A stretch of DNA of 64,000 nt, taken from Candidatus Woesearchaeota archaeon CG1_02_57_44 (GTDB taxonomy: Archaea; Nanobdellota; Nanobdellia; Woesearchaeales; CG1-02-57-44). Below are positions 42,001 through 45,000 of the stretch, piece by piece. Within the stretch, counting starts at the first letter, position 1; each line of letters opens with the position of its first letter. The position numbers are program-made. Location of the stretch: the NCBI GenBank assembly GCA_001871415.1, contig MNWW01000058.1, positions 1 to 64,000 of the forward strand. Direction: 5' to 3'.

Positions 42001-45000
42001 GAAGAAAATCGCTGTGCTTTGGTTTGAGCAGAACGTCGTCAAAAGTCAGATAGGGAGTCTCTTCGATGTGGCGTGCCATTGGAGGGGTATGTTCGTGGGA
42101 GTTTATAAAAGTTATCGGAAGTGTTATTATGTTGGTCTCATACCTCGTCTCTTATGCGTCTGTTGCATCGCTGGTGCAGGGTGATTCTCCATGGCACTGA
42201 AGCTTGACGTGGGATCTGCAATGACTCTGATTGAGCGTAGTCTATTTCATTATCCGCGCGCTCCCCTACAGGGTCTTCTGGACCTGCTTGAGCAATCGCC
42301 CGTGGTCTGCGCCACAACGCATCTTAATGGGCCCTTGCGGATCGGAGACCGAGAATACAACGGAGGCATTGCTGTCTATCCTTTCAGCATGGGACACTTC
42401 CCGATGGAGGCGGTCTCATCTCAGGTCGATCCCCTCTTCATGACCGTGGTCAGGACAGAAGGGGACACTGCTTATCATGAGCTGTTGTATCCGGCGCCGA
42501 TCGCTCGGCCACGTCTGGCCGACCCGGAAGGGCAGATAGTCGCGTTGCATCGGTCGGTCGCGCAGTATCTCTCTGAGCATGGGGCAGAGCTCACCTCTCC
42601 GAGGACTGAACAGGGAGGGACTCATTTCGGCCCTGTCCGCTACAAGCAGTACGATGTCGTGTCGTGCCGATCACCGCTCGATGTCGCCTTCCTGCGCGAT
42701 AGACCTGCTTGAGAATCGCTGTCATCGGGCGGGTGTTGGCTTTATTGTATCGGCTGCTGCCCCTTCTCGCCGACCTGCTCCTTGAGCGACCTTGCCACTG
42801 CTGGATTGAGCAGGGCCGCGAGCTGCCCGAGCGACGCGCGCCGGACATCCCCGACAGAGCGGATGTTCGCGTTCCAGAGCATCCTGGCTCGCACGCGACC
42901 GATATCACGGAACTTCAGGAGCGCCAGGAGCTCTTCTCTCGCTCCATGCTTCATGCGGACGCGAAGCATCGCGGAGTAGGTCGCTGCCTTGGCCTGACCG
43001 GTGATGCGGCAGAGCTCATTGGCGCAGTACAGCAGCCAGTCAGCCTGCAGCCGATGGCTATAGATCTCGCCTGGCCTAATGCTGTATTTGTCCAGGATAC
43101 TCTCTTCGTCCTGCTCGTCTATCCAGTCCAGGAACATGGCTGCCAGCTTCGCCGCTCCCATGAATGCCGTGTAATCAGGGCTGTACAGGGGGGGTTCAAG
43201 CGCCAACAGGTCTGATCCCAGGATGAGGGCATCAAGCATCTCCATCTCCTTGGCGCGAGGCCTTGGCTGGAAGAATTCACTCGATGAGGTCAGGAGGTGG
43301 AGCACACCGAATGGCGAGAGGATGGTCGCGCGGGCAAAGCCGTCCAGGATGTGTCGGGCTGCCAGGGGATCCAAGTAGAGCTCTGCGACGCGGCGGCCAA
43401 GCGGTGTGGGTCTGATGCGGGCAGTATCGGGTTTGTCCAGATCAGCTGCGCTGATGAAGCCAATGTCTTTGGCTCTGGATGATGATGTATTTGAGGATTC
43501 CTCGGACTGCACAAAGCCCCATTCCTCCAGCTGTTCGGTCGCTGCCGCGACGCGTTGCCCGATGCGGCCTAAATCCTTGAACTGGCTCGCGTAGAAAGTC
43601 TTGCTGAAGATGTCCATGAGTGATGCATGGCTATTGGCGAAGCCTGTCGCGATGAGGGAGAGCACATAGGTCCGCAGGGTCTTCTCATTAGCCAGCTTGC
43701 TGATTATCTCTTCAGGCAGGCCGTTGAAGTAGGTATCTATGATGTCCTGCTTCTCTGCTTCGGATCCCGCTATGCAGATGGCTTCGCCATAGTCTTCTTT
43801 GCCAGGCCTTCCTGCGCGCCCGAACATCTGCTGCACCTCCAGCACGGGCAGGGGCACCATGCCTCCCTGTCCGAAGCGGCGCAAATCGCGGACAATGCAG
43901 CGGAAGGCTGGCAAGTCCATACCGAACGCCAAGGTGGGGGTGGCGCTGATGATGCGTATGGTCCCGGCGCGAAAGGCGTCCTCGATGAGTTCGCGCTGCT
44001 TATGCACTAACCCTGCATGGTGGTACGCGACGCCCTTTCGCAGACAGAGCGCCAGCCTGGCGCATTGCTTGGTCGGGCGGCTGAGGGCTTTGAGCGCTTG
44101 GGCCGCGAGCAGCTCCCATTCGGGTTGCGTGTCTTTTATCTGCTTCGCGATGTCTTCAGCCACTTTTTCCGCGCTGCGCTTCGAATTGACAAAAATGAGC
44201 GCTTGCTTGCGCATGTTGATAGTGTCAAGGGCTATTTCGACTGCAGGAGGGATTGGCATTACCTGATGGCGAAGGTGTGGGGTGCTTTATGGTTTGCGGA
44301 TTACTCCTGCAGAAATGTTCTGAAATAAACTCCCTGATTGTTCTGGTACTCCAGGGCTTGCAGCCATTTTTCCGTATCTGGCTGCTTGCGTGGAACAAAA
44401 TAGATGCTTGCTGGCATGGACAAGGTATGGCTCAAAAGGATTGCTGCCTCATGCACCATGCTCATCGCTTTGGTTCCGTACCCCTGCCTTTGTACTGATG
44501 CCTTGCGGTGCGCGTTTCTCAGGACAAGGCCCTCAAGCCAGTCATGATTTGGTTCGTAATGGAACGCAAGTTGCACATTGGGCTGATTGTCATGGTCTGC
44601 CCAGGAGAACTGGATGAACGCACACCTGATGCCGTAGACTACGCGTCCCAATGCCCAGGGTTGTTCACGGGTTTGTGCTTCTGGTGATGTGCAGACTGTC
44701 TGCAGGATTTCCGAAAGCTCTGCGATTTCTTGTGCCATGCGCTCCTGCGGAAAATTGTACTGATTCAAGTTATTAATTATTTTCAATAATGAAACTAATT
44801 GTGGGGGATTGATTTATTTACCTGGGGCTATTCTACTGGTGCATGCGCTTAAAGAATGCCTGGTCGCTTTGTGGTCTGCTGCTGTGCTTGGTGACGTTTG
44901 GTGTATCGCTAGCGTCAGTCGGTGGCAGCAGTGCTTTCTACCTTTCTCATGGCGGACAGAATGTTAGTGTGTATAAAGGCTTCGTTCTATATAATATAGG

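Follow-up and report, generated by a model that had tools for sequence, protein, structure and literature searches.

A gene for archaeal Hel308 is divided inside RecA2 into two unlinked halves across Woesearchaeales, and the rear half usually carries a candidate RadA-like loop

Archaeal Hel308/Hjm is a Ski2-like SF2 helicase with HELQ and the Pol-theta helicase as eukaryotic counterparts. Among archaeal proteins encoded in pieces, the split DNA polymerase of N. equitans uses a split intein. Other split protein genes of N. equitans and Nst1 encode reverse gyrase, the Lhr helicase, topoisomerase I and others, and N. equitans also trans-splices tRNA halves (PMC3655853, available to us in part). 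RadA and RAD51 oligomerise via an FxxA linker (PMC4856416), and this linker is imitated by FIGNL1, Rad52 and the BRC repeats (PMC11162793, PMC7837696, PMC11229353; each of these four sources in part). According to the accessible part of a 2026 review, clear data for an interaction between Hel308 and RadA are missing, and the same part of the text gave no match for DPANN or FxxA (PMC13623763). The portion of an archaeal Ski2 survey at hand, including one supplement, holds no passage on a split Hel308 (PMC10946056), and PMC8407392, as far as it was accessible, mentions split genes in general only. In the literature searched, which lay largely outside subscription journals, no description of a split Hel308 was found, nor any paper in which hel308 or ski2 occurs together with woesearchae.

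The window analyzed here is a stretch of 64,000 nucleotides (contig MNWW01000058.1, positions 1 to 64,000) from Candidatus Woesearchaeota archaeon CG1_02_57_44, a member of the order Woesearchaeales (genome G000; 82% complete, 77 contigs). On its minus strand, at 42742-44259, the window holds an ORF of 505 amino acids inside a stop-to-stop frame of 514 codons. Its features, and the ORF upstream of it, are as follows.

42742..44259, minus strand: Hel308 rear-subunit gene, 505 aa, with most of RecA2, winged helix, ratchet domain 4 and HhH domain 5; without Q motif, Walker A, DExH and motif III
44176..44193, minus strand: helicase motif IV, residues 23-28, directly after the new start
44008..44025, minus strand: motif IVa, residues 79-84, HHAG-type in 64/64 rear halves read
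43921..43941, minus strand: motif V, residues 107-113, site of an intein-type insert in four relatives
43807..43830, minus strand: motif VI with the arginine-finger position, residues 144-151, GRxGR in 63/64 rear halves
43768..43788, minus strand: last RecA2 strand, residues 158-164; in a predicted complex of the G022 halves the corresponding strand lies paired to the terminal strand of the front subunit
43405..43518, minus strand: winged-helix wing with a lineage-specific insertion, residues 248-285, a low-confidence loop in AlphaFold2
43438..43461, minus strand: RadA-like FxxA motif, residues 267-274 (alignment A5)
42943..43308, minus strand: ratchet domain 4, residues 318-439, Pfam PF21280
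42883..42900, minus strand: RAR motif of domain 5, residues 454-459
44301..44786, minus strand: unrelated ORF of 161 aa, context only; no RecA1 gene directly in front

The initial annotation described this gene as a Hel308 without its first RecA domain and stated that the upstream frames hold no RecA1, and both statements were confirmed. A Pfam search with the 505-aa ORF matched Helicase_C, HTH_61 and Helicase_dom4_arc (PF20470, PF21280) and found no DEAD domain, and the alignment with P. furiosus Hjm (2zj2, E 6.8e-84) begins with query residue 8 at residue 228 and extends to residue 681. Since the stop-to-stop frame comprises 514 codons, no RecA1 can be read upstream in frame, and the ORF directly upstream (44301-44786) gave no match in a Pfam search. 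The region of the start codon is bridged without differences by contigs of two runs (X3 record 4 and X4 record 8), both from runs that are not marked as possible sources. The missing front is therefore not a misassembly at this locus, and this explanation was discarded. Elsewhere in the window, 44843-45418 on the plus strand encodes a small membrane protein that matches Pfam Lit (lipoprotein intramolecular transacylase, E 4.8e-17), in an archaeon, and 45450-45630 contains two similar short segments of tRNA-type appearance, one at 45450-45500 and the other inside the ORF 45539-45784.

The distribution of both halves was determined in 151 genomes of the order, consisting of 150 genomes drawn at a completeness of at least 85% and the window's own genome. 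The tallies include two unpublished genomes (G097 and G116), and no claim is built on either. The rear half was matched in 146 of the 151 genomes (171 matches in all, 150 of them listed). A profile built from five front halves detected the front half in 143 of the same genomes, once each and always in a frame of 197-350 aa, and not one of these 143 matches was a fused one-chain frame. Both halves were found in 139 genomes, the rear half only in seven (including G000), the front half only in four and neither in one; two of the genomes with one half, G084 and G092, are rated 100% complete. The split reported before for Woesearchaeales holds across the order in this larger sample. Also as reported, the halves are unlinked: in five single-contig genomes they lie about 11, 38, 170, 333 and 424 kb apart, and in G111 they are separated by 3 kb and located on opposite strands. 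A stand-alone DEAD ORF is present in all five single-contig genomes, as had been claimed for complete genomes, while the length given for it (221-235 aa) applies to four of them, the fifth frame having 333 aa.

Among the matches listed, rear frames longer than 640 aa are explained by intein-type inserts (Cys to His-Asn) or, in one case, by a C-terminal extension. The initial annotation had described three long frames with an insert within the C-half and one with a C-terminal extension; this is corrected here to four intein-type inserts at motif V and one at motif VI in split rear halves, besides the one extension. Over split and fused lineages together the intein-type inserts measure about 460-510 aa (L152-L155 and L163 at motif V, L156 at motif VI). 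The rear half of G048 (L024:1444-3750) carries a C-terminal methyltransferase-like domain, which by its resemblance we take to be MnmC-like, and a gene similar to this domain adjoins the rear half in 5 of 64 loci. Regarding gene neighbourhood, ftsY is located directly downstream of the front gene in convergent (tail-to-tail) orientation in 20 of 41 front-half loci (L069-L113) and gave no match in the 19 fused loci listed. A conserved operon for the rear half was considered and rejected, the commonest neighbour family being present in only 7 of 64 loci. The two halves are correlated in their distances (36 genomes, Mantel r 0.78, 0 of 2000 permutations); kinship confounds this result, which has little weight.

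A set of 80 named records contained 66 split proteins, 11 fused proteins and 3 unclear cases. The split records are titled Candidatus Woesearchaeota (33), Nanoarchaeota/Nanoarchaeia (9), Methanosarcinales/Methanobacteriota (20) or unclassified (4), and the 20 records with a Methanosarcinales/Methanobacteriota title are probably mislabelled. Two of the 11 fused records are titled Woesearchaeota, and the NCBI label is therefore wider than the split group.

Contrary to the cut between RecA1 and RecA2 that had been assumed, the boundary lies inside RecA2. In P. furiosus Hjm, domain 1 consists of residues 1-197 and domain 2 of residues 198-399 (PMC2636818, available in part). The front-half alignment places the RPVxL motif already inside Hjm domain 2, and all 41 front halves read continue past this motif and through two further strands before they end, 41-47 residues past the start of LSAT in 39 of them and 54 residues past it in two. 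An AlphaFold2 model of the fused protein of G232 (pLDDT 87.7) has strands at residues 203-210 and 213-217, followed by a loop at the position of the cut. From these strands and the Hjm domain limits it follows that the front subunit is RecA1 plus about 20 residues (two strands) of RecA2, and that the cut is located about 20 residues inside RecA2 and not at the RecA1/RecA2 linker. The rear half starts with the segment that follows in fused relatives, with a loss of roughly 5-10 residues. Walker A, DExH, SAT, the Q motif and RPVxL are present in 41/41 front halves read, and R.RAR is found in 54/64 rear halves, next to the HHAG-type and GRxGR motifs given above. The best PDB match of the front half is 2zj2 (E 2.4e-65). 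Judged by these motifs, both halves look functional.

In the other orders of the class, full-length frames had been reported and were found again: 54 of 65 matches lie in frames of 687-757 aa or, once, in a frame of 1233 aa with an intein. Eleven matches are shorter. In three of these (G176, G204 and G239) the frame continues across the fused junction until the contig ends or a gap follows, G180 is cut off by a contig end, and G157, G170, G236 and G268 are located at contig edges by their coordinates. G221 is fused with one later in-frame TAG; this single TAG (L161:2139-2141) falls in domain 4 of the otherwise fused Hel308 and represents an error, a pseudogene or a third cut. In G234 and G258, which belong to two families, Hel308 has its cut at a second site immediately behind motif VI, and a separate frame of 360-366 aa elsewhere encodes the rest of the protein:

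G234: L110/L159:3457-4638 with L166:1459-2556
G258: L108:213-1373 with L164:556-1635

This second type of split cuts just before the RecA2 strand that accepts the front strand in the predicted complex described below. As the nearest relative of G258 in the front-half tree, G224, is fused, this second cut possibly arose more than once. In 68 of 151 genomes of the class, including several single-contig genomes of other orders, the Hel308 front-half query gave no match at E 1e-40, and Hel308 was possibly lost in some lineages of the class.

Phylogenetic trees were quick or FastTree trees with midpoint roots. The front halves form one side of a branch that separates them from the fused proteins, with SH-aLRT values of 95 (57 rows) and 99 (43 rows). 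Free trees of the rear half placed one or two fused proteins, and once a split protein, on the wrong side, and in AU tests a split clade was not rejected (p 0.876 and 0.416). Since the AU tests do not reject a split clade, the fused proteins that fall among the split ones in free trees need no chimeric origin, although one is conceivable. The data are consistent with a single origin of the split, which they do not prove. Gene structure, distribution, motif conservation and cut site, all of them observed, support an old gene fission across the order with both halves intact and unlinked.

In most split rear halves the hairpin of the winged helix is extended by about 7-25 inserted residues. When the F-x-S/T-A pattern is applied strictly, it is present in 52 of 61 anchored split halves and in none of 14 fused proteins (three split and two other rows have no anchor). 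In alignment A5, which leaves out G138 (no insertion), the intein-bearing rows and G048, F268 is found in 57/57 and A271 in 55/57 rows. AlphaFold2 models the loop with a pLDDT of 49-65 and a short helix after the motif. The loop reads F-x-S-A-D/N-E/D-L/I, and the RadA linker of the order, taken from 25 RadA proteins (35 loci fetched, the rest dropped by a filter), reads F-x-S-G-D/E-D/E-L/I/V. This similarity suggests, with about even odds, that the wing-loop FxxA motif docks the rear subunit into the oligomerisation pocket of RadA. One contig of G000 carries both RadA and, about 5 kb away from it, a shorter paralog of RadA that is presumably RadB-like (G000:C61:1639-2274 and 6943-7992).

Only slightly less probable is that the FxSA motif does not mimic RadA and serves another partner or packing within Hel308. 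The motif is short, the RadA of the order has FxSG and not FxSA in 23 of 25 proteins, and a reverse scan ranked RadA only 32nd or 89th of 5406. The forward scan points the other way, as, among 5406 six-frame segments of G000, a profile built from RadA alone put the window loop in 2nd place with 8 columns and in 14th place with 7 columns, both widths tried being reported here. When F and A are disregarded, 50 of 59 loops are above the 95th and 42 of 59 above the 99th percentile of 1988 F-x-x-A/G windows, with the median loop at the 99.75th percentile. A further named set of 58 split halves (after dropping 6 duplicates and 2 unanchored rows) bears on both readings: the motif is absent from 12 and present in 46, and 34 of these 46 exceed the 95th percentile. 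Kin are not independent, and all loop-motif counts amount to one or two evolutionary observations. Also against this second reading are the low AlphaFold2 confidence of the loop and its position outside the listed interface residues of the predicted complex described below, an unlisted residue being uncertain. Because of this position, and with the same uncertainty for unlisted residues, a role of the loop as a clamp between the halves was rejected.

A similar insertion is present in two of the 11 fused named records and one 5'-open relative, which form a separate, distant clade (L315, L344 and L334, one titled Aenigmatarchaeota) with an FxxA-type insertion at the same wing position; its presence there, which also fits a role other than RadA mimicry, is possibly convergent. 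The other two pattern hits among the 11 fused records are false. A strict coupling of loop and split, as the first set would have it (52/61 against 0/14), was weakened by the second (46/58 split halves) and was given up; the FxxA loop is associated with the split and not required by it. The front half of G138 (L073) has an N-terminal extension of about 37 aa with a DFVDA motif like the wing loop, and its rear half has no loop. A transfer of the motif to the front half was not accepted on this single case, as the congener G036 has neither.

A complex of the two halves was modelled for the cognate pair of G022 (rear residues 1-500 and front half, ATP and Mg included, own alignments). The pair scored 0.80 and the best of three controls 0.00; the mark used is reached by 116 of 157 solved complexes and 2 of 215 mismatched pairs, counts that hold only roughly here. 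Contacts agreed to at least 96% between runs, the partner pLDDT was at least 88, and the interface comprised about 200 contacts. The contacts predicted with the highest confidence pair front residues 208-214, the RecA2 strand retained in the approximately 20 RecA2 residues of the front half, with rear residues 166-172, which form the strand that follows motif VI. RecA1 is also in contact with the winged helix, and the Walker A/B residues face motif VI. Because the complex may pass by its likeness to the solved one-chain enzyme, and its score may reflect memory of solved one-chain Hel308, the model speaks for compatibility of the halves only and not for binding.

We propose that a single fission event, placed at the base of the order, divided hel308 into two unlinked genes, encoding a front subunit of about 220 aa with RecA1 (Q motif, Walker A, DExH and motif III) and the first two RecA2 beta-strands, and a rear subunit of about 500 aa with the remaining RecA2, the winged helix, the ratchet and the HhH domain. 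The two subunits would assemble into a heterodimeric Hel308 in which the terminal strand of the front subunit completes the RecA2 sheet and the RecA1 body packs on the winged-helix domain. A composite ATP site would be rebuilt, with Walker A/B from one chain and motif VI from the other. That the ATPase site is made from two polypeptides, as the initial annotation had argued, is a consequence of the anatomy of SF2 helicases and is in keeping with the predicted complex. The heterodimer would be expected to translocate and unwind DNA like one-chain Hel308; its assembly and activity in the cell are what we infer from the gene data and the modelled interface. We assign a probability of roughly 0.85 to a heterodimer held by strand donation with a rebuilt ATP site. 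The wider reading, in which this two-chain motor closes on strand donation and also docks on RadA through a BRC/FIGNL1-style FxxA mimic, is tentative and has somewhat worse than even odds. If true, it would make the enzyme an archaeal recombinase regulator, probably an anti-recombinase, that can be loaded on RadA filaments and switched on by a separately encoded ATPase piece.

It is unlikely, at around one chance in ten, that the halves instead meet only transiently or act partly alone, with the rear half as an ATP-independent DNA-binding or annealing factor and the front half as its on-demand activator. Such an arrangement would suit the unlinked genes with their differing neighbours, and annealing is assigned to domains 4 and 5 (PMC13623763, in part), which sit in the rear subunit together with the RadA-like loop; the rear half also folds alone in AlphaFold2 (mean pLDDT 89). 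A single half was found in 11 of 151 genomes, but genomes with the front half only (4) or the rear half only (7) are rare, and the loss goes in both directions, as with assembly gaps. The strands that the front half contributes to the RecA2 sheet and the large predicted interface of about 200 contacts would fit a stable dimer better.

For the window's own organism, a slightly lower probability still is given to a true loss of the front gene, which would leave the rear gene an orphan or decaying. The initial annotation reported the RecA1 gene absent from this assembly, and this was upheld: PF00270, profile and tblastn searches of G000 yielded other helicases only, and the ftsY region on C48 holds other genes and no front half. 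In addition, the G000 rear half has a fairly long branch, an unusual composition, a shorter N-terminus than most relatives and a tail without a PIP-like motif. (A PIP-like tail as a trait specific to the split was rejected, since 7 of the 19 fused loci listed carry one.) Against a loss, the assembly is only 82% complete and in 77 contigs, motifs IV-VI, RAR and the FxxA loop are all intact, and the ORF is unbroken in contigs of other runs where covered. Covalent rejoining of the halves into a one-chain Hel308 by a split intein or RNA trans-splicing, for which the inteins in this gene (five split relatives and one fused) and the trans-spliced tRNA halves and split DNA polymerase of N. equitans (PMC3655853, in part) offer a precedent, is very improbable, because the front half closes a few residues past its final Hel308 strand and the rear half opens with a start codon of its own no more than about 15 codons from the cut, which leaves no room for intein fragments, and none of that size were found in 41 front and 64 rear termini.

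A natural split helicase motor with one cut fixed across an order, and a second site in other orders, shows at which points an SF2 motor can withstand fission and in what way its pieces may stay together. The two-chain Hel308 would also be a ready two-component system with which translocation and annealing could be separated. In such genomes Hel308 will escape annotation that relies on full length or on a DEAD domain. The wing loop offers a precise site for testing the contact between Hel308 and RadA that the accessible part of the 2026 review calls unclear (PMC13623763), and if the loop contacts RadA, FxxA recombinase mimicry would be extended to an archaeal helicase.

Compared with archaeal Hel308/Hjm, whose structures (2ZJ2 of P. 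furiosus, 2P6R of A. fulgidus, 2VA8 and 9B15) are the best PDB matches of both halves, all five domains and all motifs are present, spread over two genes. RecA1 with Q motif, Walker A, DExH and motif III is encoded by the separate front gene in 41/41 relatives read, and the rear gene has motifs IV, IVa, V and VI of RecA2, the winged helix, ratchet domain 4 and HhH domain 5 with RAR. Unlike Hel308/Hjm, the enzyme comes from two unlinked genes with a cut about 20 residues into RecA2, and the wing insertion of split rear halves is absent, in the alignments, from 2ZJ2 and 2P6R, and also from the 14/14 fused relatives first read. As the five domains are not on one polypeptide, we file it as a split variant, which on its motif content would work like Hel308 and departs from it in the one-chain arrangement only. 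Like the BRC repeats of BRCA2, FIGNL1 and Rad52 (sources as above, in part), the loop has a short FxxA motif that would copy the oligomerisation linker of the recombinase itself; it is conserved, resembles the cognate linker, lies in an exposed flexible segment and is absent in 12/58 of the further split halves. Those mimics are eukaryotic and tested, whereas the loop of this archaeal helicase is a candidate mimic. The split genes of N. equitans and Nst1 (PMC3655853, in part) share with the present case unlinked gene halves, a reduced DPANN genome and a presumed reassembly after translation, and split Hel308 likewise consists of two unlinked intact ORFs with a conserved cut that are fused in outgroups. 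Hel308 is absent from the table of split genes in the available part of that study, in which the SF2 helicase Lhr is cut at different sites in the two lineages, whereas in Hel308 one cut is fixed across a sample of about 120 families of archaea with larger genomes.
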